Source: Mobula hypostoma
Taxonomy: Eukaryota
Direction of reading: 5' to 3'
NCBI RefSeq assembly: GCF_963921235.1
Contig: NC_086097.1
Location: forward strand, 48,486,001-48,550,000
Length of the DNA: 64,000 bases
In this document: positions 24,191 to 64,000 of the stretch, in pieces
How positions within the stretch are numbered: the stretch's first letter is position 1
Layout: each line of letters starts with the position of its first letter
Notes under the pieces: generated by a model
What the model was told of the DNA's origin: nothing
Database searches by the model: none
The model's input: the letters and a program-made list of their open reading frames with translations, nothing else
Translations under genes and position numbers: made by a program

Positions 24191-27100
24191 TGTTATGAGA
24201 TGCTCCCAACCACTCCAGCTTCCGAGATTTAAATGCTTAACTCTCTGGAGTATGGATAGCGGGCATGGTCTCTTTCAGGGCTTAGGATGTTCCTGTTAAT
24301 TGATAATCATGCTTCGGGCACCAAGAAATGGGTATTCAAGGAACACCTGAACATAGGCTCAGTGCTTAATCATAAGCCTCAGCAATAATTTCATCAAGTG
24401 TTTGTTTTGTGCTCAGTTTTCGATTCAGTTTGATTCCATGTCTCCATCCTAGCTTTGGATACTCCAGCATTCGGGTCCAAACCTTCCTCGTTGAGGGTTC
24501 TTATCACAATACAACTGAACCAACATGGACCCAACGGGTATAAGAGTCTTTCATCAGCTGTGGCCAGCCACAGTGAGAAAATTTCAGGACAGACCCTGGA
24601 GATACATGTTACCTGTTGCTCTGTGGAGCCAGTCCATTTTCCAACCCTGGAGAGAGTTGACAGGGACCCGGGCTCTTGCTGTAGCTTCTTCAGCCAGTGT
24701 TTGAACACCAGTGTTCCTGGTTGTCTTCGGAGTGTGAATAGGTGGCCTTCATTATCTCTCTTCTGACTGGAAAAGCCCTGGCCTGGGCCATCGTGCATTG
24801 GGAATGCAGGTTAGAGAGTTGCTCAGATTCGGAGGAATTATTGGCTACAATGAGGAAGGTGTTTTATCACTCTGCCAGAGCCAGCCAAGCCTCAGACCGC
24901 TTGATGAAAATTCAACAGGGTGGAAGGTCAGCAGTCAACTATACAATTGATTTTGGACCTTGGCCCAAGAGAGTGGCTGGAACGGTGAGACTTTGACCAT
25001 GCTGTACCACCACCGACTCTGAGATGAACTGAGGGATGTCCTTGCCTTGGGAGAGCCAGCAGAGAACGAGTTTCTTATCAACTGGTCCATCCGTCTCCAT
25101 AGTTTTCTGGCAGAGCGAAAGTGGGACCACTTCAGGAGGTCGAAGAGAGCCGGTCTGAGCCCAGTCCCTACGCATCGCAGTTCCACCCCCCAACCTCGGG
25201 CCATGACCAGACCGTCTCTGGCTTAAGATTCAGTTGAACCCATGTAGGTTGGTTGCACTAGACCTTCTGCCGATGAGGGGACCCAGCAGCAGAGTCACAG
25301 TTGCTACTTTTACTGCGGGGAAGCTGATCATCTACGGGCCAAATGTCCAAAGCTGCGGCCACCTGGGGAACTGCAAAGACCATCCAGTATCAGGAGGACT
25401 GTGACAGTAGCAGCCAGTACACCCAATCCCATTTATTCTGGTTTTTGTGCCAAAGGCGGAGTTCATCTGGGGTAAGAACTTGAGGCAGTGAAGGCTTTTT
25501 TGGATTCTGGGGCAACGGGCAGTTTTCTGGATTTAGGAACTGCCCATTAGTTCACGATACAGCTGTGAGAGTTAAGGCAAGCCTGGACGACCTGGATGGC
25601 CGACTGCTAAGTTCTGGGCAGATGCAGCAACAGACTGTGATTTTCTTGATGAAGATAGGGGATCATGAGGAAGACATTAGTTTTTACATTATTGACTCTC
25701 CACTTGTACCCTGATCCTCGGGTACCCTTGTCTGTCGCAGAATAAACTATCTGTGGACTCGAGAGGGGGGGAGAATCATTGCTTGGTCCAGTCATTGTAC
25801 GAGGCTTTGTTTATAGCATTGTGTTCTGACACCCAGACTCTCCAGTGACCAAGGGGGCAGGCTTCAGGGTCAGAGAACCTGAGACCTTCTGGGGACCTAG
25901 TCCAGTCTTTAAGAGTGGACAAGCAGGTTCTGGCCAATTGGACAGTATGAGTCCTGACACAGTCTAGTCAGAATCCCACAGGGACTAGGGAGAGAGAATT
26001 TCTAGCTCAGGAGATGCCCGAGCAGTCTGGGAGACTTGCCGCTAAGCTGACGGGAACCAGCCACCAGGTCTCAAGGAAGGGAAAGACTCCTTTATGCTGA
26101 GCCTTGAAGCCAGGGATGCAAGAAATGTAACACCTCGGGGCCATTGCCTGTGGATACAGGCGGGGAGTTGGACTCTGATTTGGCCACTGTTCCCATGGAT
26201 GAACTTTGAGCTTGGAGAGCGGGCTCTGAAAAGCCCTTTGAATCACCCTGTCATGAAAAAAGTCACAGGAGTTGTCCTCAAAGGAAGATCTAGAGGAGAT
26301 AGCATCTCCCAAACAGGTTGAAATCTCCTCTGTTTCCAAAGATTTAGAGGAGGTTTTCAGCAAGGGACAGGATTTGACTCTTCCGCCACACTGACCCTAC
26401 AACTGTGCCATTGACCTGCTGCCTGGTACTTGTCTTCAATGGGGTCATTTGTACGTGCTCTCAGGCCCAGAGAGAGGCACAATGGAGGAGTATATAAAGG
26501 AAGCTCTCGCCACGGGCTTCATTCGGCCCTCTACCTCACCTGCCAGCACAGATTTCTTTCTCGTACAAAAGAAAACGGGAGCCTGCGGCCACGCATTGAT
26601 TACAGGGGAATAAAATGCATAATGGCCAAGAAACACTATCCCTTCCTCTTGTAAATACAGCTTTCGAGATGCTCCAAGGGGTGAGGATATTCACAAAATT
26701 AGACCTCCAGAGTGCCTACAGTTTGGTCTGTACCAGGGAGGGCAATGTGTGGAAGTCGGCATTCAACACACCGACAGGTCACTATGAGTATCTGGTTATG
26801 CTCTTTGGCCTTGCAAACACCCCAGTTGTTTCCCAAGCCTTTATAAACAACATGCTCTGGAATACTCTTCATAAATATGCTTTCATCTATTTGGATGATA
26901 TTCTAATCTTCTTGAAGTCCATGGAGGAGCACATTGCTCATGTAAAGGACATTTTAAAGAGGCTACTAGACCATGGACTTTACGTCAAGACCAAGTTTCA
27001 TGTGATGACTGTTTCATTTTTGCATTTCATCATCTTTAATGGTAATCCAGAAATGGGGTCGACCAAGCCCTAGGCAGTCAGAGTCTGGCCATCATTATCC

Positions 27101-29426
27101 AATATGAAACAGGTCCAATGATTCCTGGGGTTTTCTAACTCCTACTGGAAGTTCATCAGGAACTTCAGTTCAGTGGCAGCTCCACTGATGGCCCTAACCA
27201 AGAAATCCATGGAACTTTTGCCTGGATGATTGAAGTGGAGGCTGTTTTTGCAGAGCTTAAACAGCAGTTTACTACAGCTCCCATTTTGGTTTCTCCGAAC
27301 CCAGATCTCTCCCTCATCGTGGAGGTGGATGGCACAGACATCGGAGTAAGCGCCATCTCGTCTCAATGATCACTTTCGGACAGCAAACTGCACCCGTGTG
27401 CATTCTTCTCCAGGTGGCTATCCCTGGCAGGGAGGAACTATGACAGCAGGAATTGGGAGCTTCTTGCGGTTAAATTAGCCTTGGAGGAATGTGTCATTGG
27501 CTAGAGGGGGCCAAGAACCCTTCTATTGTTTGGACTGACCGTAAAAACCTGGCCTATATTCAGGAGACCAAGAGGCTGAATTCCAGGCCAGACAGGTGGT
27601 CTTTCTCAACCATTTTAATTTCATCCTGACCCATCAACTGGGATCTAAGAATCAGAAGCCTGATGCCATGTCCCACCAGTTTGATGAAACGGAATGAGGG
27701 GGGAAGCCTACTACCATTTTGCCCCAGGCCAGGGAGGTAGCATCAATTCATTGGGGAGTCAATGCTCTTGTTCACAAGGACCAAGCAAAAGGGGAGGATC
27801 CTGAGAATGGTCCTCCTGGTCAGCTAATTGTCCCAAGTTCTGTCCAGTCCCAGGGACTGCAATGGGGACACTCGTCAAGAATGACTGCACACCCAGGAAT
27901 TGCCAAGGCCCTGGAGTTTATCAAGAGGAGGTATTGGTGGCCCAGAATGATGAGAGAAGTTCGGCAGTACGTGCAGGCATGCGAGGTGTGTGCCTGGAAC
28001 AAGAAGTCTCGTACCAGACCACAAGGGCTCCTCTACCTCCTACCTGTTCCGAAAAGCCCTTTAGCACACATCTTCATGGACCTTGTCACAGATCTCCGGA
28101 CATCCAAGGGAAGTCACTCATTATGGTATTTGTTGATTGATTTTCAAAAGCCTGCAGGTTCATTGTCTTGTAGAAGCTACTTTTTGCAGCAGAGACAGCA
28201 GAGGTTGTTCTGGACCAGGTCTTCAGGGTCCATGGATTCTCAGTGGATATTATCTTGGTTCATGGACACAATTTTCTTTCCATTTCTGGAAAGATTTCTG
28301 TAAACTGGTAGGGCCAAGAGCAAGCCTTTCCACTGGGTTTCAACCACAGTCCAATGGCCAGACGGAGCAAACGAACTGAGATTTAGAATGTACCCTGAGA
28401 TGCATGACTTTGGAAAGACCCAAAGAGTGGTGTGACCATTTAATGTGGGCAGAGATCACCCACAACACCTTACAGCACCTGGCACATGGGATGTCACCAT
28501 TCGCGTGCCGATTTGGTTATCCTCTGTTTCTGAACAAGAAGCCAAGGTTGGGGTCCCCGCTGCAGGAGATCTCATCCAATGCTGCAAGGAAAAAAGGATG
28601 AGGGCAAGAGAGATTTTGCTGGCCTCTACCTGGAGAGTGGAGCCAAGGCAAACTGAAGAAGTCTGGAACCTGCGTTACAGCCTGGGCAACAGGTCTGGCT
28701 GTCCCCTCATGTCTTTCCTCTCCGAGTGGAATCTGGAAAGTTGGTGCCCAAGTTCATTGGTCCCTTTAAGCTCCTGAGGAAAGTAAACCCAGTGGCTTAC
28801 ACCTTGCAATTCCCCAAGACCCTAAATATCAACTCCACCTTCCACATCTCTAAACTAAAACCTCTCTGCACCATCCCCTTAGCCCCACCACCATCAGCCC
28901 CAGCACCACCCAGGTTTATTGATGGGAACAGGTCTTCACGGTGAAAAGACTTTTGGACTTGCAAACTTAAGGAACACCTGAACATAGGTTCAGTGCTCAA
29001 TCATAAGCCTTACTAGTGATTTTGTCTAGCAGTTGCTTTGTGCTCAGTTCTCGATCCAATTTGATACCGTGTCTCCATCCTTGCTTTGGGTATTCCAGCA
29101 TTTGGGTCCAAGCCGTCCTCATCAAGGACCCTTGTCACAGTACAATTGACCCAACATGGGCCCAGCAGTGTATTGGAGACTTTAGTCAGCTGTGGCCAGC
29201 CACAGCAAGAAAATTTTAAGACAGAGCCTGGAGATACACGACCTCCAGGTTGCCATGTGCCAACTATTGCAGGGAGGAAGCCAAAATCGCTCGGGTGAGG
29301 GTGTTGGTTGCTCAGTGGAGCCAGTCCATTTTCTGACCCTGGAGAAATTTGATACTGTGTCTCAACCTTTGTTTGGCTACTCCAGTATTTCTGTCCTAGC
29401 CACCCTCATCAAGGACTCTTGTCACT
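24191..29426 (+). mobile_element. Ty3/Gypsy LTR retrotransposon (sushi/chromovirus-like), degenerate
   Basis: 5' LTR TG..CA 24191-24508; gag from ATG 24525 with a CFYCGEADH knuckle near 25300; protease FLDSGATG near 25500; RT FTKLDLQSAY and YLDDILIF; RNase H VEVDGTDIGV; integrase HPG...[10 protein letters not shown] and LVPKFIGPF; TSD GATTC at 24186-24190 and 29427-29431. Confidence 0.95.
28970..29139 (+). repeat. Second (5'-deleted) LTR copy of the Gypsy element
   Basis: Aligns without gaps to about 24340-24508 with roughly 32 mismatches in 168 nt by hand count. Confidence 0.9.
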
Positions 29427-32429: not shown

Positions 32430-33645
32430 ATAGTCATAGTCATACTTTATTGATCCCGGGGGAAATTGGTTTTTGTTACAGTTGCACCATAAATAATAAA
32501 TGGTAATAAAACCATAAATAGTTAAATAGTAATATGTAGGTTATGCCAGGAAATAAGTCCAGGACCAGCCTATTGGCTCAGGGTGTCTGACCCTCCAAGG
32601 GAGGAGTTGTAAAGTTTGATGGCCACAGGTAGGAATGACTTCCTGTGACGCTCTGTGTTGCATCTCAGTGGAATGAGTCTCTGGCTGAATGTACTCTTGT
32701 GCCCAACCAGTACATTATGTAGTGGATGGGAGACATTGTCCAAGATGGCATGCAACTTGGACAGCATCCTCTTTTCAGACACCACCGTCAGAGAGTCCAG
32801 TTCCATCCCCACAACATCACTGGCCTTACAAATGAGTTTGTTGATTCTGTTGGTGTCTGCTACCCTCAGCCTGCTGCCCCAGCACACAACAGCAAACATG
32901 ATAGCACTGGCCACCACAGACTCGTAGAGCATCTTCAGCATTGTCCGGCAGATGTTAAAGGACCTCAGTCTCCTCAGGAAATAGAGACGACTCTGACCCC
33001 TCATGTAGACAGCCTCAGTGTTCTTTGACCAGTCCAGTTTATTGTCAATTCGTATCCCCAGGTATTTGTAGTCCTCCACCATGTCCACACTGACCCCCTG
33101 GATGGAAACAGGGGTCACCAGTACCTTAGCTCTCCGCAGGTCTACCACCAGCTCCTTAGTCTTTTTCACATTAAGTTGCAGATAATTCTGCTCACACCAT
33201 GTGATAAAGTTTCCTACCGTAGCCCTGTACTCAGCCTTATCTCCCTTGCTGATGCATCCAACCATGACAGAGTCATCAGAAAACTTATGAAGGTGACAAG
33301 ACTCTGTGCAGTAGTTGAAGACCGAGGTGTAAATGGTGAAGAGAAAGGGAGACAAGACAGTCCCCTGTGGAGCCCCAGTGCTGCTGATCACTCTGTCGGA
33401 CACACAATGTTGCAAGCACACGTACTGTGGTCTGCCAGTCAGGTAATCAAGAATCCATGATACCAGGGAAGCATCCACCAGCATCGCTGTCAGCTTCTGC
33501 CCCAGCAGAGCAGGACGGATGGTGTTGAACGCACTGGAGAAGTCAAAAAACATGACCCTCACAGTGCTCGCTGGCTTGTCCAGGTGGGCGTAGACATGGT
33601 TCAGCAGGTAGACGATGGCATCCTCAATTCCTAGTCGGGGCTGGT
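32430..33645 (-). mobile_element. Young 5'-truncated Rex1/Babar LINE (RT)
   Basis: Open 330 aa ORF 32570-33562 with FFDFSSAFNTI, GAPQGTVLSP, KFSDDS and YKYLG; 3' tail (GACTAT)n. Confidence 0.95.
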
Positions 33646-34289
33646 TATCTCAAGGTAAAACACAGGGACGATTTCATCCTCTTACTGGACCATCAGCAAA
33701 GAGTCAACAATCCCATTCTCAGGCACCAACATCATTTGCAACTATAACCAATAAACATTAGGCAACTACAACAGATACACAGACATTACTTGTAATCAAG
33801 ATAAATGTCTTATTTTATTTGTAACAGTATTATGAGATGAAAGAACAGGAATATGATTTAGCATTCTTATCTGCCAGCACTATTTTTCTCAGACAAATGC
33901 TTCAGAGGACCATAAGCTTCCTGTGTATCTGATTAATACCTATAGTTACACCTTCATTTTTGAAGACAAGGTAATGATTTGAAACAGCTGACTCACCTTC
34001 AGGTGTATTGGCAGCAGGTTCTCATCCAGTGGGAGCTTTATCCTGTTGAAAATCACCTACTGATTAGACTAAATTACCCTAAGCATTTCATCACTGACAC
34101 TTCATTCCTGTGGAAACTGACATATGGGTTGTGGTCATGCATCATAGCCCAAGTCCTGTTGAAGCTTCTCCATTCGAATCATCTACTTTGCCATTTTGGG
34201 GATTTATGTCTGACATTACTGTTGTATGTTTGACTGATCTTTCATGTGAATATGGAAGACAATTCCAAAGGTTCACTAACAAACAAGCA

Positions 34290-34517: not shown

Positions 34518-37500
34518 AAACATAGAACATAGAACAGTACAGCACTGTACAGGCCCTTTGGCCCACAATGTTGTGCTGACCCTTAAATTCTGCCTTCCAT
34601 ATAATCCCCCACATTAAATTCCTCCATATACCTGTCTAGTAGTCTCTTAAATTTCACTAGTGTATCTGCCTCTACCACTGACTCAGGCAGTGCATTCCAC
34701 GCTCCAACCACTCTCTGAGTCAAAAACCTTCCTCCAATATCCCCCTTGAACTTCCCACCCCTTACCTTAAAGCCATGTCCTCTTGTATTGAGCAGTGGTG
34801 CCCTGGGGAAGATGCTCTGGCTGTCCACTCTATCTATTCCTCTTAATATCTTGTATACCTCTATCATGTCTCCGCTCATCCTTCTTCTCTCCAAAGAGTA
34901 AAGCCTTAGCTCCCTTAATCTCTGATCATAATGCATACTCTCTAAACCAGGCAGCATCCTGGTAAATCTCCTCTGTACCCTTTCCAAAGCTTCCACATTC
35001 TTCCTATAGTGAGGTGACCAGAACTGGACACAGTACTCCAAGTGTGGCCTAACCAGAGTTTTATAAAGCTGCATCATTACCTCACAACTCTTAAACTCTA
35101 TCCCTCGACTTATGAAAGCTAACACCCCATAAGCTTTCTTAACTACCCTATCTACCTTTGAGGCAAGTTTCAGGGATCTGTGGACATGTACCCCCAGATC
35201 CCTCTGCTCCTCCACACTACCAAGTATCCTGCCATTTACTTTGTACTCTGCCTTGGTGTTTGTCCTTCCAAAGTGTACCACCTCACACTTCTCGGGGTTG
35301 AACTCCATCTGCCACTTCTGCATCCTATCAATGTCTCTCTGCAATCTTCAACAATCCTCTACACTATCTACAACACCACCAACCTTTGTGTCGTCTGCAA
35401 ACTTGCCAACCCACCCTTCTACCCCCACATCCAGGTTGTTAATAAAAATCACAAAAAGTAGAGGTCCCAGAACCGATCCTTGTGGGATACCACTAGTCAC
35501 AATCCTCCAATCTGAATGTACACCCTCCACAACGACCCTCTGCCTTCTGCAGGCAAGCCAATTCTGAATCCACCTGGCCAAACTTCCCTGGATCCCATGC
35601 CTTCTGACTTTCTGAATAAGCCTACCATGTGGAACCTCGTCAAATGCCTTACTAAAATCCATGTAGATCACATCCATTGCACTACCCTCATCTATATGCC
35701 TGGTCACCTCCTCAAAGAACTCTATCAGCCTTGTTAGACACAATCTGCCCTTCACAAAGTCATGCTGACTGTCCCTGATCAGACCATGATTCTCTAAATG
35801 CCGATAGATCCTATCCTAAGAATCTTTTCCAACAGCTTTCCCACCACAGACGTAAGGCTCACTAGTCTATAATTACCTGGACTATCCCTACTACCTTTTT
35901 TGATCAAAGGGACAACATTCGCTTCTCTCCATTCCTCCAGTATCATTCCCGTGGACAATGAGGACACAAAAATCCTAGCCAGAGGCTCAGCAATCTCTTC
36001 CCTCGCCTCGTGGAGCAGCCTGGGGAATATTCCATCAGGCCCCGGGGACTTATCCGTCCCAATGTATTTTAAGAACTCCAACACCTCTTCTCCCTTAATA
36101 TCAACATGCTCCAGAACATCAACCTCATTCATATTGTCCTCACCGTCATCAAGTTCCCTCTCATTGGTGAATACCGAAGAGAAGTATTCATTGAGGACCT
36201 CGCTCACTTCCACAGCCTCCAGGCACATCTTCCCATCTTTATCTCTAATCGGTCCTACCTTCACTCCTGTCATCCTTTTGTTTTTCACATAATTGAAGAA
36301 TGCCTTGGGGTTTTCCATTACCCTACTCGCCAAGGCCTTCTCATGCCCCCTTCTTGCTCTCCTCAGCCCCTTAAGCTCCTTTCTTGCTACCCTATATTCC
36401 TCAATAGACCCATCTGATCCTTGTTTCCTAAACCTCATGTATGTTGCCTTCTTCCACTTGACCAGATTTTCCAACTCATTTGTCACCCATGTTTCCTTCA
36501 CCCTACCATTCTTTGTCTTCCTCACCAGGACAAATTTATCATTGACATCCTGAAAGAGATCCCTAAATATCGACCACATGTCCATAGTACATTTCCCTGC
36601 AAAAACATCATCCCAATTCACACCCGCAAGTTCCAGCCTTATAGCCTCATAATTTGCCCTTCCCCAATTAAAAATTTTCCTGTCCTCTCTGATTCTATCC
36701 TTTTCCATGATAATGCTAAAGGCCAGGGAGCTGTGGTCACTGTCCCTCAGATGCACACCCACAGAGACCTGTGACCTGACCTGGTTCATTACCTAATACT
36801 AGATCTAGTATGGCATTCCCCCTGGTCAGCCTGTCAGCATACTGTGACAGGAATCTGTCCTGGACACACTTAACAAACTCTGCCCCATCTAAACTCTTGG
36901 AACTAATCAGGCGCCAATCAATATTAGGGATGTTAAAGTCACCCATGATAACAACCCTGTTACTTTTGCAGCTTTCCAAATTCTGCCTCCCAATCTGCTC
37001 CTCGGTATCTCTGCTGCTACCAGGGGGCCTATAGAATACCCCCAATAGAGTAACTGCTCCCTTTCTGTTCCTGACTTCCACCCATACTGACTCAAGAGGA
37101 TCCTGCGACATTACCCACCCTTTCTGTAGCTGTAATAGTATCCCTGAGCAGTAATGCCCCCTCCTCCCCTTTCCCCCTCTCTATCCCTTTTAAAGCACTG
37201 AAATCCAGGAATATTGAGAATCCATTCCTGCCCTGGTACCAGCGAAGTCTCTGTGATGGCCACTGCATCATAATTCCATGTACAGTATATATTCGAGCTC
37301 TCAGTTCATCACCTTTGTTCCTGATGCTTCTTTCATTGAAGTACATGCACTTTTGCCCTTCTACCCTACTGTCTTTACACTATTTATTCTACTTCTCTTT
37401 CCTCAAAGTCTCTCTATATGTTAGATCTGACTTTACTCCATGCACTTCTTCCATTGCTCTATCGCTCTGGGTCCCATTCTCCGTTGCAAATTAGTTTAAA

Positions 37501-37787: not shown

Positions 37788-40058
37788 ATAGAAATATAGA
37801 AACATAGAAAATAGGTGCAGGAGCAGGCCATTCAGCCCTTCGAGCCTGCACCGCCATTCTGTATGATCATGGCTGATCATCCAATTCAGAATCCTGTACC
37901 TACCTTCTCTCCATACCCCTGATCGCTCTAGCCACAAGGGCCATATCTAACACCTTCTTAAATATAGCCAATGAACTGGCCTCAACTGTTTCCTGTGGCA
38001 GAGAATTCCACAGATTCACCACTCTCTGTGTGAAGAAGTTTTTCCTCATCTCGGTCCTAAAAGGCTTCCCCTTTATCCTTAAACTGTGACCCCTTGTCTG
38101 GATTTCCCCAACATCGGGAACAATCTTCCTGCATCTAGCCTATCCAATCCCTTTAGAATTTTATACGTTTCAATAAGATCCCCCCTCAAACTTCTAAATT
38201 CCAGCAAGTATAAGCCTCGTTGATCCAGCCTTTCATCATATGAAAGCCCTGCCATCCCAGGAATCAATCTGGTGAACATTCTTTATACTCCCTCTATGGC
38301 AAGAATGTCTTTCCTCAGATTAGGGGACCAAAACTTCACACAGTACTCCAGGTGTGGTCTCACCAACGCCTTGTACAACTGCAGTAGAACTTCCCTGCTC
38401 CTGTACTCGAATCCTCTTGCTATGAATGCCAGCATACCATTTGCTATTTTCACTGCCTGCTGTACCTGCATGCCCACTTTCAGTGACTGGTGTACAATGA
38501 CACCCAGGTCTCGTTGCACCTCCCCTTTTCCTAATCGGCCACCATTCAGATGTTAATCTGTTTTCCTGTTCTTGCCACCAAAGTGGATAACCTCACATTT
38601 ATCGACATTAAATTGCATCTGCCATAAATTTGCCCACTCACCTAACCTATCCAAGTCACCCTGCATCCTCTTAGCATCCTTCTCACAGCTAACACTGCCG
38701 CCCAGCTTCGTGTCATCTGCAAACTTGGAGATGCTGCATTTAATTCCCTCGTCTAAGTCATGAATATATATTGTAAACAACTGGGGTCCGAGCACTGAGC
38801 CTTGCGGTACCCCACTAGTCACTGCCTGCCATTCTGAAAAGGTCCTGTTTATTCCCACTCTTTGCTTCCTGTCTGCCAACCAATTCTCTATCCACATCAA
38901 TACCGTGTGCTTTAAGTTTGCACACTAATCTCCTGTGTGGGACCTTGTCAAAAGCCTTTTGAGAATCCAGATATACCACATCCTCTGGTTCTCCACTATC
39001 CACTCTACTAGTTACATCCTCAAAAAAATGCTATGAGATTCGTCAGACATGATTTTCCTTTCACAAATCCATGCTGACTTTGTCCAATGATTTCACTGCT
39101 TTCCAAATGTGCTGTTATCACATCTTTGATAACTGACTCTAGCCTTTTCCCCACCACCGATGTCAGGATAACCGGTCTATAATTCCCTGGTTTCTCTCTC
39201 AGTCCTTTTTTTAAAAAGTGGAGTTACATTAGCCACCCTCCAATCCTCAGGAACTAATCCAGAATCTAAAGAGTTTTGAAAAATTATCACTAATGCATCT
39301 TCTATTTCTTGGGCTACTTCCTTAAGCACTCTACGATGCAGACCATCTGGCCCTGGGGATTTATCTGCCTTTAATCCCTTCAATTTACTTAACACCACTT
39401 CCCTACTAACATGTTTTTCCCTCAGTTCCTCCATCTCACTAGACCTTCAGTCCTCTACTATTTCCGGAAGATTATTTATGTCATCCTTAGTGAAGACAGA
39501 ACCAAAGTAGTTGTTCGATTGGTCTGCCATGTCCTTGTTCCCCATGATCAATTCACCTGTTTCTGACTGTAAGGGACCTACATTTGTCTTAACCAATCTT
39601 TTTCTTTTCACATATCTATAAAAGCTTTTACAGTCAGGTTTTATGTTCCCTGCAAGGTTTCTCTCAATCTTTTTTCCCTTTCCTAATTAAGCCCTTTGTT
39701 CTCCTCTGCTAGATTCTGAATTTCTCCCAGTCCTCAGGTGTGCTGCTTTTTCTGGCTAATTTGTATGTTTCTTCTTTGGAATTGATACTATCCCTAATTT
39801 CCCTTGTCAGCCATGGGTGCACTAACTTCCCTGGTTTATTCTTTTGCCTAACTGGGATGAACAATTGTAGTAGTGCATCCATGCAATCTTTAAATGCTTG
39901 CCATTGCATATCCACCGTCAACCCTTTAAGTATCATTTGCCAGTCTATCTTAGCTAATTCACGTCTCATACCTTCAAAGTTACCCTTCTTTAAGTTCAGA
40001 ACCTTTATTTCTGAATTAACTATATCACTCTCCATCTTAATGAAGAATCCCACCATAT
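37788..40058 (-). mobile_element. 5'-truncated CR1 LINE nested in ORF1 of the full-length CR1
   Basis: ORF pieces 38079-40092 belong to the same subfamily as 7244-8514 and 21728-23820; own tail at 37788; possible TSD ATCAC (37782-37786 and 40057-40061). Confidence 0.93.
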
Positions 40059-42089
40059 CACGTAGCACTGGCAGCAATCCTGAGAACGCCACCCTTGAGG
40101 TCCTGTTCTTCAGCCTAGTTCCCGAAACTCACACTTCAGGACCTCATCCCTCTTCCTGCCTACGTCGTTGGTACCAACATGTACCATGACTTCTGGTTGC
40201 TTTCCCTCTTGTACCAGGATGTCGTGCACCTGGTCAGAGACATCCCGGATCCTGGTACCCGGGAGGCAACAAACCATGTGGGTGTCCTTCTCACGTCCAC
40301 AAAATCTCCTGTCTGCTCCCCTGACTATAGTGTCCCCAGTGACGACAGCTCTCCTCTTCTCCATCCCACCCTTCTGCACCACAGAGTCAGACTCAGTGGC
40401 AGAGGCTCTGCCACCGTGGCTCACCCCTGGTCGGTCGTCCCCTCCAACAGTATCCAGGACGGTATACTTATTTTGCAGGGGAATGGCTACAGAGGTGCTC
40501 TGCACTACCTGTCTTCTCACCTTTGCTCTCCCCCCTCTGACTGTCACCCAGCAACCTGCTTCAGGCAACCTAAGTGTGACTACCTCCCTATAGCTCTCAT
40601 CTATGACTGCCTCATTCTCCTTCATGAGTTGAAGGTCATCCAGCTGCTGCTCCAGATTCCTTACACGGTCTTCCATATCGCCCAGCCGCATGCACTTCTG
40701 GCAGATGTGACTCTGTGGGAGAGGGGAGTTCCCCCAAGACTGCCACATCTCACGTGAGTGGCACATCACCATCTCAGGAGGCATTGTAGAGCCTAACTGG
40801 GGGCAAGCTCATCCTCTGCCCCTTCTCGTCGAAGCCTCTCGAGTCAAAGCCTCAAAGCTCCACTCCTTCACTAGCCCACTCACTCACTGGCTGCTCTGTT
40901 TGAGCTACTCCTCTATTAATTTGTTTGAGCTTTTCAAACTACTTGGTCACCTGACCTCGATTGCCCAATCAGCTACATTCTGCTGAATCTGAGCTGTTCA
41001 AATCTTGATTGTCTAATCAACTGCTTTCTGCTGAGCTATTCAAATCTTGCTTGACTTGATTGCACAGTCCAACTGCAAGAATCTCTTGAGTCAAAGCCTC
41101 AAAGCTCCGCTCACCCACTGGCCACTTAGATGTTGCCTGGCTCTAGCATTTTGTGAGTATTGCTGCAGTGGTTCACTACCTTGCAGGTGAAGAAATTCTT
41201 TCTCACCTTTGTTCTGACTGGACTGTGAGTTCTGGTTTGACGCACTCTAGCCAAAGGAAATATAGCTCTGCATCTGCTCTGACAAGACCAGGAGGAATTA
41301 TATACTTTTTAATGATAAAGATGTCATTTTTCTGAAACCGAAGTATGTAATTGTTACTGATATTATGTATTTAAAGATCTGATCAAGGAAGTGACTCATT
41401 TACAGAAGTGCAGTAGGTATTCACAGAGAATTTTGAGTTTAATTTTTTTTCTCTCCGTTTATGACCTTTTCTGGGTGGCGGGGGGGAAAGGAGTTTTCAT
41501 CAGTGAGCCTTGGCTCCATCATCAGGAAATTGGCATGTGATGAATAAAGGTATCAAAGGCTTTGTGGTTATAAATACCACAGATTGTCAATCACAGGGGT
41601 AAAGGTGAGATTGCTCTACAGACAACTCCCAGTGTATCATAGTCAGACTTTGAAGAATTGAGGATATGTATGTTATGGGTTGAATGCTCTCTGGTAAATT
41701 TCAACTTTTTTGCTGATCAATATCCTCAGATCTGAATGACTGGCATCGATAAACTGCTGTCAGACTGTATGGTTCTGTAAACCTCTGACTGTTTCACCAT
41801 CCTCTAGAGTGACTTCAGCAGAGCTACCCATAGTACTAGGTTGAAATGTGATGCACTGAGTTTTAGCCTTTTGTTGGTCGATCTTTGAAAGACTTACACA
41901 TAAGGAGCTGCTAGGTAGCTTTTCTTTTTTTTTAGGAATTTCCATACCTCAAATATTCAGAGGAATCTGGCAAAAATTTGTCTACCTGACCTGAGTTGGT
42001 TTCCATTCCTCCATGATATTAACAGATGTAGCTCCACGTTCCGAATGACCAACCAATTGGTTTGATGATTGAATAGGTGTATGAGGGAG

Positions 42090-53705: not shown

Positions 53706-54260
53706 GTTCAAAGTAAATTTATTATCAAAGTACATATGTATATGTCACAATATACAACCCTGAGATTCACTTTCTTGTGTGCATTCACAGCAAAGACAAG
53801 GAACACAAAGAAATCAATGAAAGACCATGCCCTACCAGGCAGACAACAATCAATATGGAAAAAATGTGCAAATACAAAAGAGGAAAAAGAAATAATATTC
53901 ATCATCAATCAATAGATAAATAAGCAATAAATATCAGGAAAATGAGATAGAGTCCTTGAAAGTGAGCCACCAGTGGAAACAATTCAATGGTGGGGCAAGT
54001 GAAGTTGAGTGAAGTTACCCTCTGGTTCAAGAGCCTGATGATTGTGGTAACAACTGTTCCTGAACCAGGCTGTGCAGGTCCTGGGTCCCCTGTACCCGCT
54101 TCCTGATGCTAACAGTGAGAAGAGAGCATGGTCTGGGTGGTGGCTATCCCCAACAGCGGATGCTGCTTTGCAGTGATAGTGCACCGTGTAGATGTGCTCA
54201 ATGATGGGGACGGTGTTACCTGCGATGGACTGGGCCAAATCCATTACTTCTTCTAGGGAT
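53706..54260 (-). mobile_element. Rex1/Babar-type LINE 3' end
   Basis: ORF 53984-54304 CKAASAVGDSHHPDHALFSLLASGSGYR; tail AATAAATTTACTTTGAAC on the minus strand. Confidence 0.8.
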
Positions 54261-57185
54261 TTCTTTGTTTTTGTAACTCCAGAAATTAATTGAAAGAAAT
54301 GCATGGGGAGACTGGGATAAACGTGTACTCTTCATTTTTACCTATAGTGAGGTGCACACATATGATATGGTGGCATACTGAAATATGCCATTCACATACT
54401 TTTACATAACCCTTAATTATGTCAACAGAAAAGGATGCTTAATGTCTACAATATTACTGAAGTATTAAATACACAACATTCCTCCCTATTTAGCTATAAG
54501 CTCCAACTCAATAGAAAATGCATCTCAACTAAATACACAGTATACTATATAATACAACATCCATAGCATAGTACATTTTAAATTGTACCATTCAGTCCAA
54601 AAGATTAAATTGCTGTGGAGGATTTATTAATCTTGTGGGATAATGTATTCCTTGGCAGGACAGACTTGAGGCTGTGGAACAATCTCAGGTTCTGGGGCCT
54701 ATTCTGTGTTGGTTGCAGGAATTGACTCAGACTGCAGGATGCGGTTCTGACAGCTCTGGATAGCTTTCTTCTCCTTTCTTCTTCTCACCTACTTTAGCTG
54801 TCTGTTTGGATGGTAAAACAACTCTGAATCCCCTCATAAAGCAACCCCCTTCAAGGCTAGGTTCATCCAGGTGCTGGTAAAAATGGAGGAATTGGAATTT
54901 CTGATGAACATTACAGCCACCTTGGGTTACTACGTAGACTGGAGAATGTGTGGAGTCTTTTCTAGTTTTCCTTTCCATCACATCTACCATAAGAGTGAGA
55001 TTTACAATTTGCACTAGAGAGCAGAAACTTTTTTAGTAAAATTTTCTGGTATTTCCTTTTCCAAGGGTAAACAGGACAATCCATCAGCATTTCCATGATG
55101 AGTCATCCTCTTGAATTTGATCTTGAGAATTGTGCCCTACAAGAAACAGAGCCCATCCCTGCATTCATGCTGTAGCTGCTAGAGGAACTCCCTTCAGTGA
55201 ACTGAAAATGGACACCAGTTTGATGATCAGTAATGAAGGTAAACTTTCTCCCATACAAGTATCGGCTAAAATATTTTACACCCTCAGCCAGACTCTAGGC
55301 CTTTCTGCCAATCTGTGTGTAATTTTTTTTCTCTGCAGAGGTAAGGTAATGTGATGAAAAGGCCATGGGGCGTTCACTTCCATCACTCATTACATGTGAC
55401 ATGACTGCACCTATACCAGAAGGCGAGGCATCACAGGCAAGCTTCATTGGGTGACGTGGATAATAATGTGTGAATACAGTATCTGATGTCACCATTTTCT
55501 TTACCTTTCGGAAAACCACCTCACATTGTTCTGTCCACTGCCATTTCCTCCCGATCTGTTGTAATAAGTTCAAGAGGTTCAGCACAGTAGCCGGGTTTGG
55601 CAGGAACCTGTTGTAGTAATTGACATGTCCTAGTAAGGACTGCAACTATGACATGTCCTTAGGTCTTGGGGCATCCACCATTGCCTGAATTTTCTCAGCG
55701 TATTTGTGCAATTCTTTTGCATCTATAGTGTGAACATGGTAAGTGATGCATGGTTTGAAGAATTCACACTTGATGCATTTTGCTCTGAGCCCATAATCAC
55801 CTAATATTTTTAACACTGTCCTGAGATTTGAGATGTTACTTGTCATCCTTACCAGTAACAAGCATATTATCCAGGCAACAACAAGCATCAGGACCTCCTT
55901 AACTCACCTAGTCCATAGTTTTCTGCCAGACTGCAGGTGCAAATGCTACACTAAAAATAAGCCTATTATAGTGATAAAGCCTATGGTGAGTGTAGCCCCC
56001 GGTAAGCTTCAGGCTCGCTCAGCTCGCTTTCCTCTAGGGGGAGCAGCCTTCAGCCCCGCCAAACTGAGTAATCAAGTTTGTGTAGATGCTGTGTGATGTT
56101 CCCCACTCCGCCAAATAACAGAACAGTACACCATATGCGATTAAATAATTAGTCTTTCTAAGTATTTACTGGAACTATGTAATTAATAGAGATACAATAT
56201 AAAAGGAAAGTAAAAGGCGCTAGACTTATCAAATTTCAACCACTTCGTGCACAACCTTTGGAGCTCAATTAACAGTCTTCTTTCCCCCATTCGATCTTCT
56301 CCGGCCGCCTCGACCCGCTGCCTGGGATCAACCATGGTGGTCGGCCAGATGCTCCACACGAGTCTGTTCTCGTCTCCTCTCCTTGCTGAAGACCCTGGGC
56401 CTCAGACTCTTGCACAGGGTCCGTTCTGTCACCCAGTTTACAGCATCATGTCTCCTCTCTCTGTCCCCATCGCACCTTCTGCCACAAAGCCCACGAAAAA
56501 CAATAGCTTACCAACACACGAATAGTATCTATCCCAATTGGTTAGCAAATGAATACAATTCTCTCTATCAGTAATTACAACCCAAACAAGCGGCTATAGA
56601 GAAGCACTTTCTCAGCAGTTAGCATAACAAAGAAGCCATTCTATTAGCCTTAGCAGTAACATAAAAGAAGAAACCTCTTACATTCTCCCCCCACCAAATT
56701 TAGTCATGTCCTCAACTTCTAAATAACTCACCAACCCTTCCTGCAGTCACAGAAACTCAATCCAGGTACAAACAGTGACATTGCTCCCCAAACAGTGGAC
56801 CTTACGCCCTGTTCCTCAGGCGCTACATAGGCCAAACTATCTGGGAGTTTCCTAATCCTCCGAGACTTCCGTACCCCCTCACCTAAACCCTTCAGGCTCG
56901 GACACTACTGGGGATACCTCGGGTCTGCTTGCCAAATCCTCTCTCAATCTCTCACTCATGCCCCCACTGCAACTCGAGGCCCCCTGTCCCATGTCCAGGC
57001 CCCCACTTCTTTTCCTTCAGGGTCCTGCTGTAACCCAGGATGCCCACAGATAGCCCTCCTCAGTACCCCTGACTCAGTGGCAGAAGGGCCAAAAGTCTCT
57101 TCATCCAACAAGGGAAAGTTAGCGAAAGGCAGCATGTACCACACATCCAGCACATCATCCTTCAAATCCAAACTCTTCCCCATTT

Positions 57186-57620
57186 CCTCAGTTGGTAGCT
57201 GCTGTTTGATTTTCTCCAAACTGAAGCACTTAGCCTGGGCTGCCTCTGCAGCGTCTTCAGCCTCCGGCAATCAAGACGTCAGCATCTTCTTTGGCTCCTC
57301 TGCCTCCAGCCGCAGCTGCAGCACTTCGTGTTCATCTCCATCTGGAATGCAATTACACCACCAGCTTCTTCCAATATGTTCTGGATCGATTTCTTGAGTT
57401 TCTGCTGATCCTTTCAAAGTTTGGTCATTGTTTCGTCTCTCTGGATTAATTCATCAGTAAATGACCGCAGTTTTGGCTCGGAATTCCATTTCCCCGTCTC
57501 CACTTTGACGAGCGTGGACTCCAGTTCTTCAATGGTTGTCCCAAAATTGCAGCCCTCAGTCTCCAGCCTGCATCTCTGAGTGTTCAGTTCAGCGGTGCAA
57601 ATCTCCTCACTCAGGAGCTG
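57186..57620 (-). pseudogene. Captured fragments of class II (sarcomeric) myosin heavy chain rod coding sequence
   Basis: EEICTAELNTQRCRLETE..IEELESTLVKVETGK..EPKLRSFTDELIQRDETMTKL, LEEAGGVIAFQMEMNTK and [34 protein letters not shown] match three separate MYH rod segments in the correct order. Paralogue not determined. Confidence 0.88.
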
Positions 57621-58867
57621 TGACTTTCTCCAGACCTGGCACTCGTCCAAAGAAAGTTTTACTTTGTCAATCCCTAGTCGCCTGGGATCCCTCACTCGCC
57701 TCACTTCATAGTCTCCCAAGGCGAATCCAAACCCTAGGCGATCATCCACATACGCCAAAGCTCCAAACACCTCCACATCTCCCATGGTTTTCCCATGCCC
57801 CACAGGAAGGTTGCAGGGGCTCCAGATATGCCTTGTGGCATCTTTTCAGACCAGAAGAATTCTAGGGGACCTATAAAGGCCGCCTTCTCCTTGTCACCCT
57901 CACTCATTGGGATCTGGCAACATCCACTCCTCAGATCCAGCACATTAAACCACATTGCACCATTCAAACAGGCCATCGCGTCTTCGGCCCTCAGGACTGT
58001 ATACTGGTCAATGAGTGCACCTGTTCAGAGTCCTATAATCCACACGCACACTGCCTATGTCTTCCACGGCTGCAGGGGCCAGTCCAAACAGCTCTCACCC
58101 GGCTCCTCCTGGCAGGCCCCCATGCCTCCTCACCAGTGAGGTGTTGGTCCCCTCCAGAATCGAAACACTGCCCGTCGCACCAGGGTTCAGACACATCAGC
58201 ACTAACGATTCATGACCCTCTGACCCTCACACATTGGCCTCCAAGAACTCCAGTTTCACTGACCAATAACCGTCATCTGGATAATCACTGGCATTGGTAC
58301 CCCAAATCTCCAGTGCCCTTAATGTTTTCAAGGGTAAATGCTTCAGAAACCAGTTGTAAAATGAACTGGACAACAACTTGACCTGCGCCCTGGTGTTGAG
58401 GATGGCTTTAGCATAGCTTCTATCTATCTGTAATGACACTCGAGGGCATGGTCCCTCTAAGCCTTCAGGAATAGGGTCTTTTCCTTTCAGGAGTTCCTTG
58501 GAACATTGCTGGGAACATGATCCCTCAGAGACCCCAAGCTGTTCCCCCACTGGGCCTCCACTAAGTTTCCCGACACCTCTGATCAGCTGAACAACTGAGG
58601 GAGGGGCTGATCCCCTTAAATGATCCCTCTGGCACTGCAAGCAATTTAGCTGCCCCCCTAGCCAGAGAAGATACACAGAAAGGTTTTCCCCAATCTCCTG
58701 ACACAGGTATGGAAAGCCCCCCCAGGTGCTGCATTTTACTTTCAGTTGAATGAAACTCATTTTCCCCCCATTTTCAGATAACTGGCAGCTGTCACTACGG
58801 GGTAATTGAACCTGACAGTTCTAACACTGTCAACAGCCCACCTACTCAAACTCTCAACCAATCCCTG

Positions 58868-59251
58868 TCACTCTCTCTCAACCAAGCACTGCCACTCATC
58901 TAACAACTGAGAGATCCGTTCCGCCCACATCTCGTAGGCCTCCGCTCCTTTAGGGGTGGACAATATCCCAAAAGCCAGGCGGAGCCTACCATAGCTGGAA
59001 CATTTATTTGCCGACACTACCTCCGAATCAGACCACTCTTTCCTCTCTCTCCTAACAGTATGGACAGCCCATGGTCCCGCCTCACCCGGGGCACCAATAG
59101 ACACTGGCCGTCCCACCACCATTTCATCAGCGCTAATCTGAACTCGAACAAAGACCTCTGGGGTACCAACAGCCACCCCACCCAACATGCATGCAGTAAC
59201 AACCAGCAATCCCACAGAGGCACACCAGCTTTCCGTCCCCACAGCATGCAT
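58868..59251 (-). pseudogene. PNMA/Ma-like Gypsy gag remnant
   Basis: ESWC...ACMLGGV N-terminus and [36 protein letters not shown] resemble the YRxLRxFSG..P..GEE.F..W......EW block of PNMA-type gag. Confidence 0.75.
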
Positions 59252-60149
59252 AATTTAAAGAGGGCGATCACACAGCTTCCTACAAAAATCCATATTCCGG
59301 ACGAGTAACCCCACAATGTAGCCCCGTGGTAAGCTTCAGGGTCGCTCAGCTCACTTTCGTCTAGGAGGAGCCACCTTCGGCCCCGCCAAACTGGGTAATC
59401 AAGTTTGAGTAGATGCTGTGTGATGTACCCCACCCCGCCAAATAACAGAACAGTACACCTTATGTGATTAAATGATTACACTAAGTATGTACTGGAATTA
59501 TGTAATTAATAGAGATACAATATAAAAGTAAAAGATGTCAGACTTATCAAAGTTCAACCACTTCATGCACAACCGTTGGAGCTCAATTAACACAGTCTTC
59601 TTTCCCCCATTCGATCCCCTCCGACCCCCTCAACCCACCACCTGGGACCAACCACAGTGGTCGACCAGACGCTCCACACAAGTCTGTCCTCGTCTCCTCG
59701 CCGAAGACCCTGGGCCTTGGACTCCCACACAGGGTCCGTTCTGTCACCCAACTTACAGCATCACGTCTCCTCTCTCTGTCCCCATCGCGCCTTCTGCCCC
59801 AAAGCCCGCGAAAACATTAGCTTACAGACACACAAGAAAGAATAACTTCTATCCCAATGGGTTAGCAAATGAATACAATTCTCTCTATCAGTAATTATAA
59901 CCCAAACAAGCAGCTATAGAGAAGCACTTTCTCAGCAGTTAACATAACAAAGAAGCTATTCTATTAGCCTTAGCAGTAACATAAAAGAAGAAACCTCTTA
60001 CATGAGAAAACTTTGGACTCTTCTTCCATCTCCGATTAGCGCTTATTGTGGGGTCCTTGTTTTGAGAATGATTCATCTTACGGTGCTGCTCGGTCGATCT
60101 ACCAATATTCTGTTGGAATGCCAATGAATAAACTATTATTGGTGCCTCT

Positions 60150-61255
60150 ACAAGGGAGTGTCATTTCTCTGCACCTGGGTGCAGACATTTCTCAGTGCAC
60201 ACCATGACAGTGGGTACCTCAGACTGACAAACAAGAGGTTAAAGATATCAGTGAGCTCTTCAGCCAGTATATAAGCACAGGTCTTTAGTACTCTGCCAGG
60301 TACCCCATCTAGGCTGGATGTTTTCTGTGTGTTCACCCTTCTCAATGAAGCTCTCCCACTGACCTCAGACTGAAATAACAGGGTCAACTGGAATATTGCT
60401 AGTGTCTTCCACAGTGAAGACTATGCCCAACATCTCTATAAAATTACAAAGTTATTACTAAAGTACATATATGTCACCATACATAACACTGAGATTTGTT
60501 TTTTCTGCAGGCATACTCGGTAAATATGAGAACCATGATTCAATCATTGATTGAACCCAAAGGGAAGGGCAAGGAACCGATGTGCAAAAGGCAAGAAACT
60601 GCAAATACAAAAGAAAAAAAGTTAAAAAATAAGCAATAAATAATGAGAACATGAGATGAAGAGCCCTTGAAAGAGAATGCATCGATTGTGGGAACAGTTC
60701 AGTGAAGGTGAGTGAAATGATCCCACTGGATCAAGAGTCCGAGGGGTAATAACTGCTCCTGAATCTGATGGCGCGAGTCCTGAGGCTCCTGCACTGTCTG
60801 ACAGCAGAAGTGAGAAGACAGCATGACCTGGGTGGTGGGGTTCCTTGATGATGGCTGCTGCTTTCCTGTGACAGTGCTCCATGTAGATGTGCTCAGCATA
60901 ACCCGTAATGGACTCAGCTGATTCTACTACATTTTGTAGGCTTTTATATTATGAGACATTGTTGTTTCTATACCAGGCCATGTTGCAACTAGTCACTATA
61001 CTGTACACTGCACATCTACAGAAGTTTACCGATGTTTTAGTTCACGTGCTGTATCTACGCAAACGTTTGAGAAAGTGGAGCCATTGCTATGCTTTCTTCG
61101 CAAAGGCTCTTACATGCTCAACCCCTGACAGATCCTCTGAAATAACACTAAGGAATCTTAAGTTGCTGACCCTCTCCACCTGTGATCCCCCACTGAGGAC
61201 TGGCTCATAGTCTTCTGGTTTCCTCCTCCTGTAGTCAATAATCATCTCCTTGGTG
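60150..61255 (-). mobile_element. Degenerate Rex1/Babar LINE fragments (about 60150-60430 and 60445-61255)
   Basis: LRRVNTQKTSSLDGVPGRVLKTCA..L..ELTDIFNL; HCHRKAAAIIKEPHHPGHAVFSLL; Rex-type 3' UTR. Confidence 0.75.
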
Positions 61256-62469
61256 TTTTAGGCTTTCTTTGTGCATAAAACCAGGGAAGAAAAAGTTTTC
61301 TATAATCATACATCTTAGCTAAGTAGCACGGATTTCAAAATTTCAGTCCTATAATAGTGAATTCTGCGTTAGTTCATTGCATTTGTTTTAACTATATAAA
61401 CATTAAAACTCAAAAAAACCCAAAATGTTGCAAATGCTCAGCAGGTCAAACCATGTATCTGATAAAATGGCTTAAAATTGTAACATTTGCTCTGTTTCTC
61501 TTCTGACAAATACCACCCAACCTTCTGAATATTTACCATTTTACTGTTTTTAGTTAAGATTTCCAAAATCTGCAATTCTTTTTAAAAAATTTTTAAACAT
61601 TCAAACTGGTCTGATAATTATCAGCCACTTTCACTTTAGATATTCCTTAATATTCTCAATATGCTTTGAACTTAGAACTTTTTATTCTGGCAAAATATCT
61701 CAACTACAAACTACAGATGTCATAGAATACAACCACACAAGGTGTAGAACAGTGAAAACAAATGCATTTAGAAAACACTGGGCTTGTCCAGTTTTATAAA
61801 TTTGGCTCTTCTGTTTCTTACTTATAAAGAAGGAAACCTACAGTGAATTCTTTTTTTAAGTATTTCCTATCATATGCTTTTAGAAACATTACAAATGGAA
61901 GGTAAGGATCATGAATTGCCAAAAAAAAAAATCACAAAAAATGTGACTTGGAGAGTAGGTATTTGAACTTAGCCTGATCTTAGAATTGTAATAAAATGCT
62001 TAAGCTAGAGAGAGTCTATCCATATTAATATTATTATTATTAAAACACTTTATTATTGCTGAGGACCCAGCAGCTTCATCCTGAGGTGCACAGTTGACCA
62101 GTGTGTTAACTGGACCAGCCATTTAAACACCACAGCTGTAACAGCAAGCCAGAGGTTTGGCAGCTTCTGTAGAATGACTCACGTTCTCTTCCTAAAATTT
62201 TTCCACCATCATCAAAGCAAAAATCAGGAGTGTGATAGAATAGATTCAGTTTTCCAGGATAACAGCATCTCAATAAGTTTGATGCCATGCAGAATATAAT
62301 GGATGATCGGTTTTGAAGTTCTCACCTGGCACTCCATCCACCATTCTGTTCTTTCATTGTCCCTCTACCACCTACATGCCATAACTACTGTATATACCAT
62401 CCATAAAATGTATTTTAGCAACCTCATGAAAGCTCCTTCAAAAGCACCTCCAGAACTATTGACCTCTTG

Positions 62470-62889: not shown

Positions 62890-64000
62890 CAAACCAACAT
62901 GGGAGGTTTCAGAGGGATACCTTTAGTCGGGTAGGGAATGATATCGCGAAAAATGTGGAGTGTTTGATCTGAGGATAAGTCCTTCAGTAGTTTATCCGGT
63001 TGTAGCTCCATGGAAGCTTGGCTCCATAGACTGGCATTTGTTAGAGGTAAAAAGGAAAGAAAGATATAAAACAGATTTGGTAAATGCATTTAACTGTCAT
63101 GTGATGGAAAAGTATAGTGATTATACTCACATTTATACGGATGGTGCGAAGGAACCTGAAACAGGAGTGACAGGGTTTGGGGTGGTAATACCAGCAAAAG
63201 AAATTGGAATCAGCAGAAGAACATCTAATAAGTTAGGGGTGTTTACAGTGGAGATGCTGGCAGTGTTGATTGCGTTGCAATGGGTGCAGAAAGCCAGACA
63301 AGCCAAAGCATTGATATGTTCAGATTCATCCTCAGTTCTAGCAAGTTTAAGGTTTTTTCACACAAACGGTCGGCAAGATGTACTTTATGAAGTCCTTCAG
63401 TTAGTTACAAGAATTGCAAATCAGGGAGGTCAGGTAAAATTTCTATGGGTTCCAGCACATGTAGGGGTGAAGGGGAATGAGAGGGTGGATGAGTTGGCAA
63501 AGAGGGCGTTAAAGAAAGTAAATGTGGAAATGCACATTAGTATCAGTAAAGCAGAGGTTAAGTGTGTAATCTGGGAAAAAGTCAACCGAATGTGGCAAGA
63601 AAGATGGACAGGGAGGGGAAAGGGAGGCATTTATATCAAATACAAAAGAGTGTTGCAGGTACTAGGGTAGGTAGTGGAAACAGAAGAGAGGAAACTGTGT
63701 GGACTAGGTTAAGGCTGGGGCATTGTGCATTAAACAAAACATTGAAAATGATAGGGAAACACCAGACAGGATTGTGTGAGAAATGTCAGGAAGAGGAGTC
63801 AGTAGAACATGTAGTTTTGTGTTGCAGGAAGTATGGGATACAGAGAGAGATGATGAGAAATAAATTAAGGGAGTTGGGGATGCAGGAATTCACATTAAAA
63901 GGGTTGCTGGGCATGGGTGAGAGAGCACAAGTCCAGGTATTTTTAGCGTTTTTAAGGGGTACAGGGGTTTTTTATAGAATATGACGAATAAACAGGAATA
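62890..64000 (+). mobile_element. I/Nimb-clade LINE 3' part with RNase H and CCHC finger
   Basis: ORF 62960-63670 has IYTDGAK, VEMLAV, ICSDSSS and WVPAHVGVKGNERVDELAK; frameshifted continuation 63562-63984 has TRLRLGH and CEKCQEEESVEHVVLCC. Confidence 0.9.

Follow-up and report, generated by a model that had tools for sequence, protein, structure and literature searches.

Acutely transforming retroviruses carry host mRNA that was captured by template switching and fused in frame to gag, and they depend on helpers. The element described here differs from them in that no env-like frame was seen between its tail and its polypurine tract and its cargo, a piece of a sarcomeric myosin, bears no sign of function. 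Gene capture by LTR elements, i.e., LTR-mediated retroposition, is of a known kind. In the LTR-mediated retrocopies reported by Tan et al. 2016 (PMC5131818, of which part was available to us), partial intron-free host sequence takes the place of part of the internal ORFs between the LTRs and the product spreads secondarily as a non-autonomous element, both as found here, and short words are shared at the fusion points, with a median of 6 bp. Those retrocopies are young, occupy few insertion sites and have a known parent gene, whereas the ray chimera is common to two ray families, highly amplified and serially deleted inside its cargo; the word "shark" is absent from the main text of that paper. 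The maize element Bs1, as covered by the accessible part of PMC13317346, is likewise an LTR element, in which fragments captured from host genes share a chimeric frame. Bs1 combines pieces of three genes and is reported to be transcribed and translated, whereas the pieces in the ray element, known from sequence alone, all derive collinearly from a single myosin class. As to the cargo, the masticatory myosin MYH16 (PMC6402096, seen in part) provides its best-scoring full-length relatives and its neighbour in trees, from which the cargo differs in having no motor and in carrying, at many of the diagnostic sites, residues of MYH7/fast or cyclostome type. Among the open-access papers listed, we found no report of a myosin-bearing element in rays.

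The DNA analysed, here called the window, comprises 64,000 nucleotides of Mobula hypostoma (GCF_963921235.1, NC_086097.1, positions 48,486,001 to 48,550,000), numbered from its first letter. Our preferred reading of the locus, to which we assign a probability of about 0.78, is that a Gypsy element captured a spliced myosin mRNA, after which the chimera would have lost sequence stepwise between short homologies, spread in trans and decayed.

A defective Gypsy LTR element of 4,012 bp (4.0 kb) on the minus strand encloses the myosin pieces; all of its features given below lie on that strand, apart from the TSD, which is unstranded. The sequence TGAG occurs as TSD at 55987..55990 (left copy) and 60003..60006 (right copy), so that both LTRs and a TSD surround the host piece, from which the inferred introns are absent. 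LTR-LTR alignment places the 5' LTR at 59317..60002 and the 3' LTR at 55991..56682, each of the form TGT...ACA. By sequence, a primer-binding-site-like stretch, presumably of tRNA-Pro type, lies at 59296..59316 and a polypurine tract (PPT) at 56683..56695. Protein matches delimit a gag (PNMA-type) remnant (58576..59077), a protease-region remnant (58098..58589, matching residues 491-645 of P0075 and 111-314 of P0213) and a truncated reverse transcriptase (RT) remnant (57630..58054) with YVDD at 57752-57741. The PNMA domain is found with an E value of 0.0042 in the sister P0213 and 1.5e-48 in the relative P0075, the protease-region remnant has lost the DSG that intact relatives have, and the RT remnant matches RVT_1 at E 0.023, below the Pfam cut-off, and P0071 at 72% over 68 aa. 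The two LTRs differ at 63 of 677 aligned columns (K2P 0.101), by 47 transitions, 25 of them in CpG context, and 16 transversions; as the LTRs are ~10% apart, the insertion is old.

The RT stops after the palm, soon past YVDD, and its frame continues into myosin. No match to RNase H or integrase, both of which intact relatives have, was obtained inside the element, including the part between myosin and the 3' LTR; the myosin cargo replaces this internal pol sequence rather than interrupting it. Myosin block 3 continues in frame into a family-specific tail (56962..57195) that matches the sisters P0063, P0079 and P0086; it may resemble the C-terminal tail of Gypsy pol, and it has no match among the Gypsy polyproteins compared. 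From this tail to the PPT no env-like frame was seen. The copy has no complete set of intact gag, PR, RT, RNase H and integrase, as an autonomous Ty3/Gypsy element would, nor the motor domain, full rod and exon-intron structure of a functional myosin. Its ~140 rod codons, fused to RT, are interrupted by two stops and one frameshift, and in this copy the myosin piece is cargo without function.

The window as a whole is vertebrate DNA that is rich in repeats and contains several reverse-transcriptase fragments. One Gypsy RT/RNase H fragment, separate from the element, lies ~160 bases to its left on the minus strand (55223-55831; RT_RNaseH_2, E 2.3e-25). We considered it as the missing part of the element and rejected it, as it belongs to another family, with 28-32% identity to the relatives of the element. 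A second decayed Gypsy element on the plus strand (26568-28303) has RT and integrase zinc-finger matches, with possible LTR-derived frames near 24394-24810 and 29013-29405. LINE fragments, which we take to be CR1/L2-like, are found at 7049-8484, 21760-23620 (with an RVT_1 hit at 21822-23039), 34583-37494 and 38553-40808. At 32570-33649 (minus strand) and 62942-63984 (plus strand) there is RT with an ALKBH8_N-like C-terminal match, presumably Rex/Babar-like, and an RNase H-bearing LINE end. A frame at 13104-13487 (minus strand) gave no Pfam hit and resembles, in our estimation, the restriction-like endonuclease of site-specific non-LTR elements. Short direct repeats of 70-84% identity at 53857-54558 and 60590-61733, ~6.7-7.2 kb apart and on either side of the element, are probably dispersed repeats.

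Within the element, three sarcomeric-myosin rod blocks follow one another in native order. Block 1 (57367..57611) corresponds to residues ~920-1000 of ray MYH16, block 2 (57298..57374) to ~1140-1172 and block 3 (57196..57300) to ~1378-1412, with 143 residues missing at junction 1 and 208 at junction 2. Compared with Mobula MYH16 (P0357), block 1 is identical at 28 of 75 positions (914-988), block 2 at 11 of 17 ahead of the frameshift (1141-1157) and block 3 at 25 of 54 (1371-1424). Block 1 also matches MYH7 925-1009 in a PDB search (E 2.6e-6) and residues 915-1001 of the shark MYH16-like protein P0047 in a single 87-residue tblastn hit, and block 3 matches MYH7 1377-1424. Pfam left the myosin pieces of this copy unrecognised, and a search of the ESM Atlas returned only generic coiled coils. 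The preliminary description of this DNA had placed the joints of the blocks, in native order, at L-E-E near 57374 and at E-E near 57300. The codons bear this out, reading TTG GAA GAA at 57374-57366 and GAG GAG at 57300-57295, with K|L at 57471/57470. What it had overlooked is a second TGA (57416-57414) and a frameshifting 13-nt loss inside block 2 (57322..57324), detected from one contig and from the change of frame against P0063. The in-frame border between RT and myosin (57607..57614) is itself a secondary deletion; the sisters P0069 and P0212 retain more upstream myosin, and loose contig ends lie behind 57612 (2 contigs in X1, 4 in X12).

Sister copies, including the less-deleted ones that had been called for, were found both as proteins (P0069, P0212, P0070, P0077, P0079) and as loose contig ends. 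A search with the read-through of blocks 1 and 2 yielded, from 133 candidates, a single protein, XP_062925742.1 of Mobula hypostoma, which is 83% identical and in which RT and myosin form an open fusion that has all three blocks as well. A HMMER search with it gave 283 hits, of which the best 150 were inspected, and among the matches listed were RT-myosin-tail chimeras from M. hypostoma, M. birostris, Hypanus sabinus and Hemitrygon akajei. The order RT-myosin-tail is common to the sisters of these four ray species, several of which are named as myosins, and the sister models lie on different chromosome-scale records in all four; secondary retroposition has carried the chimera to further sites. 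In Hypanus, a cluster formed at 90% identity contains 10 members, among them the 729-aa models of three loci, all sister proteins being automatic gene models that may hide predicted introns. Contigs from four runs aligned to 56950-57900 (951 bases) with 1678, 1638, 1937 and 123 records, which is more than 1600 for each run of DNA type, counts that, like the summed depth of these runs, do not equal copy number. The family is abundant. No sister DNA was found in metagenome contigs (profile and 21-base pattern), viral contigs or prokaryote genome contigs, and no RNA record of the family was listed; run X12 is possibly RNA and was given no weight as a sign of expression. In P0213, P0086, P0081 and P0136, parts of the element have been built into the models of unrelated host genes or bear the names of such genes (TMEM192, SDHAF3 and others), and copies inside genes may therefore be exonised or mis-annotated. 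Among the matches listed, the closest named intact Gypsy RT relatives (P0071-P0075) are teleostean, from Metynnis, Neoarius and Oryzias, and no intact ray parent was present among the relatives looked up, so that horizontal transfer of the element is possible.

That the captured myosin was spliced had been argued from the lack of intron-like sequence and from a single intron site of vertebrate MYH genes, placed at 57470-57471. Intron sites were deduced here from skipped exons and erroneous read-through in a set of 163 myosin gene models, 19 of which were inspected, so that the boundaries assigned to the cargo are borrowed from gene models of other species and not from the donor gene. The site at 57470..57471 (NK|V; models P0312, P0052, P0053) is indeed crossed uninterrupted; its only occurrences were in models of MYH7/fast type (3 of 86, against 0 of 77 of MYH16 type). 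Two sites of the MYH16 type have their equivalents in block 1. KEKQ|ALD, at 57485..57486 and 15 nt upstream of NK|V, is broken in 4 MYH16-type models from monkey, seal, skate and turtle (P0243, P0220, P0034, which is the skate model, and P0266), and Q|KTLDD, at 57380..57381, in three (P0243, P0220, P0299). In one lizard, two models have their break near E-A-G-G. At 57486 one X12 contig reads V-E-K-E-L-Q-N, nearer to MYH16 than this copy, and is also intronless. We take the exact human MYH7 intron site to be K974/V975. By a table in the accessible part of PMC8767027, 183 bases between codons 917 and 989 of human MYH7 would be non-coding. All three inferred sites in block 1 are crossed uninterrupted, so that with a donor of either class at least one intron is missing; this shows that the cargo passed through spliced RNA and upholds the spliced origin that had been proposed.

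An end product just as intron-free would result if read-through or recombination had brought in intron-containing myosin DNA, the introns of which were removed in later RNA cycles, and transduction is described for Bs1 in the part of PMC13317346 that we could consult. Against this route, the cargo replaces internal pol sequence and is no extension of an end, it spans rod residues ~900-1412 and thereby a dozen exons, human MYH16 extends over 68 kb (PMC6402096, in part), and no intron remnant appears within the 64-kb window or in the 24 of 609 loose ends inspected. We consider such genomic capture very unlikely, and capture of mRNA is the simpler reading as compared with later splicing of captured DNA.

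The sisters also give the order in which the cargo shrank. At junction 1 (57366..57374) the break, 57367/57366, falls inside TTG GAA GA, as judged from loose contig ends and from the sisters P0069, P0212 and P0070. P0069 and P0212 extend block 1 as N-R-L-E-D-L-Q-V-G-E-D to residue ~1074-1078, P0070, P0077 and P0079 extend it to residue 1094, and all five then join F-Q-V-[RG]-V-E-E-A-[GV]-G at ~1139. In the 24 of 609 loose-end rows inspected, 5, 7 and 3 contigs of X1, X5 and X12 part from this copy before 57367 and continue as E-D-L-Q-V-G-E-D-Q, which confirms the left side at the DNA level. Junction 1 is a later deletion of ~100 codons, from R-L-E-D to R-V-E-E, out of an already deleted chimera, and not a jump along the myosin mRNA. 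Its left partner is L-E-D / L-D-D and not L-E-E. For the right partner, known as protein only, 6 of 11 positions must agree and an exact overlap of 2 nt is guaranteed, which may rise to 7 nt if that partner uses the commonest codons.

Junction 2, between blocks 2 and 3 (57292..57306), joins R-E-L-E-E-S to E-E-L-E-E-T of MYH16 within a shared E-L-E-E, which in this copy has drifted to E-A-E-E-P. As this junction is common to Mobula, Hypanus and Hemitrygon copies, it is older than junction 1. A shared run of four residues has a chance of 0.0009 among in-frame pairs of the MYH16 rod. A further case was seen directly in DNA. Three X12 contigs, with a loose end before 57440, lack 60 nt between two 7-nt direct repeats, ATCCAGA, that this copy retains along with the 60 nt (57380..57446; repeats at 57446-57440 and 57386-57380); the loss in that sister lineage is in frame, protein P0064 has a similar deletion, and a fraction of 0.00009 of the pairs within the myosin part share an exact 7-nt repeat. 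Other joints in sister contigs have net lengths of -141, -48 and -216 nt, the -141 type with an overlap of only 3 nt (GGG), and some junctions overlap by only 2-3 nt. Judged from junction 2 (p 0.0009) and the 7-nt repeat deletion, microhomology at internal junctions exceeds chance, in line with the microhomology that the preliminary description had expected, at the protein level for junction 2 (E-L-E-E) and to a guaranteed 2 nt at junction 1. Its claim of a collapse at repeated motifs holds as far as the breaks do lie in R-[LV]-E-[DE] and E-L-E-E words; a heptad register as the basis of the deletions was rejected, since none of the offsets (143, 208 and 20 residues) is divisible by 7, and the matches are therefore similar local words. 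Cryptic splicing was likewise rejected, for junction 1 and the 60-nt deletion as the skipped part does not begin with GT, and for junction 2 as the spacing of S-[KE]-K-K-L would suit a break in the E-L-E-E word but would not suit a splice donor in the E-S codons.

Reverse transcriptase can delete sequence between direct repeats, and serial reverse transcription is expected to give concentrated nested deletions. Such a pattern, many nested deletions within a few hundred bases, each marking several copies or contigs, speaks without being decisive against the alternative that the deletions arose in the genomic DNA of master copies, by replication slippage or microhomology-mediated end joining, and were then amplified. 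Microhomologies of 2-7 nt suit either process, and the out-of-frame 13-nt loss in this copy looks post-insertional. We regard a DNA-level origin of the deletion series as possible though doubtful; RT jumping and DNA-level microhomology deletion both fit the observed breaks, which do not separate the two. In the parts accessible to us, PMC12906968, PMC5583752 and PMC12789967 give neither intron positions nor a deletion mechanism; the review consulted for RT deletion between direct repeats does not state that mechanism.

All six large DNA-level junctions of known length are in frame (the two here, -60, -141, -48 and -216), and the three Hypanus loci within the 90% cluster of 10 have models of 729 aa, as would be expected if the RT-myosin frame had been selected in the spreading lineages, either for RNA stability or for a coiled-coil product. 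Microhomology alone gives each junction an in-frame share of 0.38-0.62, however, and hence p 0.003-0.057 for the set, which comes from the 15 joints listed out of 37 and the 12 fillers listed out of 27, seven of the listed joints having no filler given. In addition, the heptad register is lost, this copy has two stops and a frameshift, its 13-nt loss being out of frame, and gene models are biased towards open frames. The bias towards in-frame junctions is a hint only, and selection on the frame seems to us unlikely.

Identification of the source gene, which the preliminary description had left as a check, succeeded at the level of the class; the gene itself was not found. A profile of five less-deleted sisters, with 1435 hits from the 8000 best candidates, ranks MYH16 first (best 120 of 1435). 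An invertebrate donor is disfavoured, as vertebrate myosins outrank insect and spider ones and fill these best 120 hits. Chondrichthyan MYH16-like proteins score best of 165 full-cover myosins, with 35, 44, 64 and 61% identity in four regions, the cargo being only 35-44% identical to MYH16 in the S2 part. Of 25 aligned element rows, 10 entered the comparison, and the second tree was built with 6 rows fewer. Trees group the cargo with the MYH16 class at a support of 97 and on a long branch. From these comparisons the donor is of MYH16 class.

Within that class the position is less simple. Free tree searches place the cargo outside gnathostome MYH16, a tree constrained to cargo plus gnathostome MYH16 is 5.2 lnL better than the quick free tree, and the AU test does not reject cargo plus batoid MYH16 (p 0.198). 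Site counts were made after low-confidence short segments of the jump alignment had been removed. The cargo keeps 63 of 99 near-invariant sites and the MYH16 state at 12 of 34 MYH16-diagnostic sites (Fisher p 0.005); at 10 of the 34 it has the MYH7/fast state, 7 of these 10 being also found in lamprey or hagfish and three needing two base changes. Block 1 of this copy matches Hypanus MYH16 at 17 of 26 invariant and 15 of 53 variable sites (p 0.003). As neutral decay should not separate diagnostic from near-invariant sites, we favour a donor that was a paralog, old or young, which would have evolved under protein constraint before capture and is not today's ray MYH16; this we hold to be moderately probable. 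If the donor was instead an ordinary ray MYH16 and the cargo has merely long decayed, the top rank of chondrichthyan MYH16-like proteins, the elasmobranch state at 4 of 14 sites against the bony-fish state at 3 of 14 and the AU value would be accounted for, whereas the three site comparisons above would not, and we give this explanation a minor share of our belief. A mosaic of two donor mRNAs was considered and set aside; MYH16-type and MYH7/fast-type states alternate along the cargo. No donor gene turned up among the proteins searched, those of 437-2000 residues, a result that gives limited evidence for its loss. More tentatively still, the cargo may be the fossil of a lost or unannotated ancient MYH16-class paralog (less likely a myosin of another host), carried by spreading lineages that were filtered for an open RT-myosin frame and shrank via serial short-homology deletions across two ray families.

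The decay of this copy is evident from its stops. At the TGA at an Arg position (57271..57273), the letter at 57273 is another one in 356.5 of 367, 1480 of 1620, 197 of 218 and 75 of 75 of the contig depth in the four runs; at the second TGA (57414..57416), the corresponding values for 57416 are 5345 of 5386, 6067 of 7089, 6037 of 6735 and 246 of 279. At both positions the other letter gives a CpG-bearing Arg codon. The TGA near 57272 had been ascribed to CpG decay of a conserved Arg, and with most of the sister contig depth carrying the CpG codon there, this origin is confirmed for both stops.

Based on these data we propose that an ancestral PNMA-gag Gypsy element in a myliobatiform ray lineage would have co-packaged a spliced MYH16-class mRNA, that its RT switched onto this mRNA past the palm-coding part of RT and returned close to the 3' end, and that rod sequence would thereby have replaced RNase H and integrase. 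The chimera kept its LTRs, primer site and PPT and spread as a non-autonomous family, as seen from the LTRs, the TSD and the dispersed sisters, presumably by trans-mobilisation. In the order shown by the sisters, the oldest deletions (~1094 to 1139, and E-L-E-E to E-L-E-E) predate the divergence of Mobulidae and Dasyatidae copies, and those at junction 1 and at the RT/myosin border came later, in the sub-lineage of this copy, with RT slippage as the likely cause of the stepwise losses. The present copy inserted already collapsed and then decayed, as its LTRs, 10% apart, its two CpG stops and its frameshift attest.

Being decayed, this single copy is of modest value; it yields the order of the deletions, a direct case of microhomology, corrected intron sites and a doubt about the donor. 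In ray annotations, copies of the family raise the number of myosins counted, and they are incorporated into unrelated gene models, such as those bearing the names TMEM192 and SDHAF3. The cargo may record a myosin paralog that current gene sets lack. From one capture arose a large vertebrate family, and the nested deletions of its copies make up a series that is a natural data set on the homology needed for short-range template switching and on the selection of open frames in non-autonomous elements.
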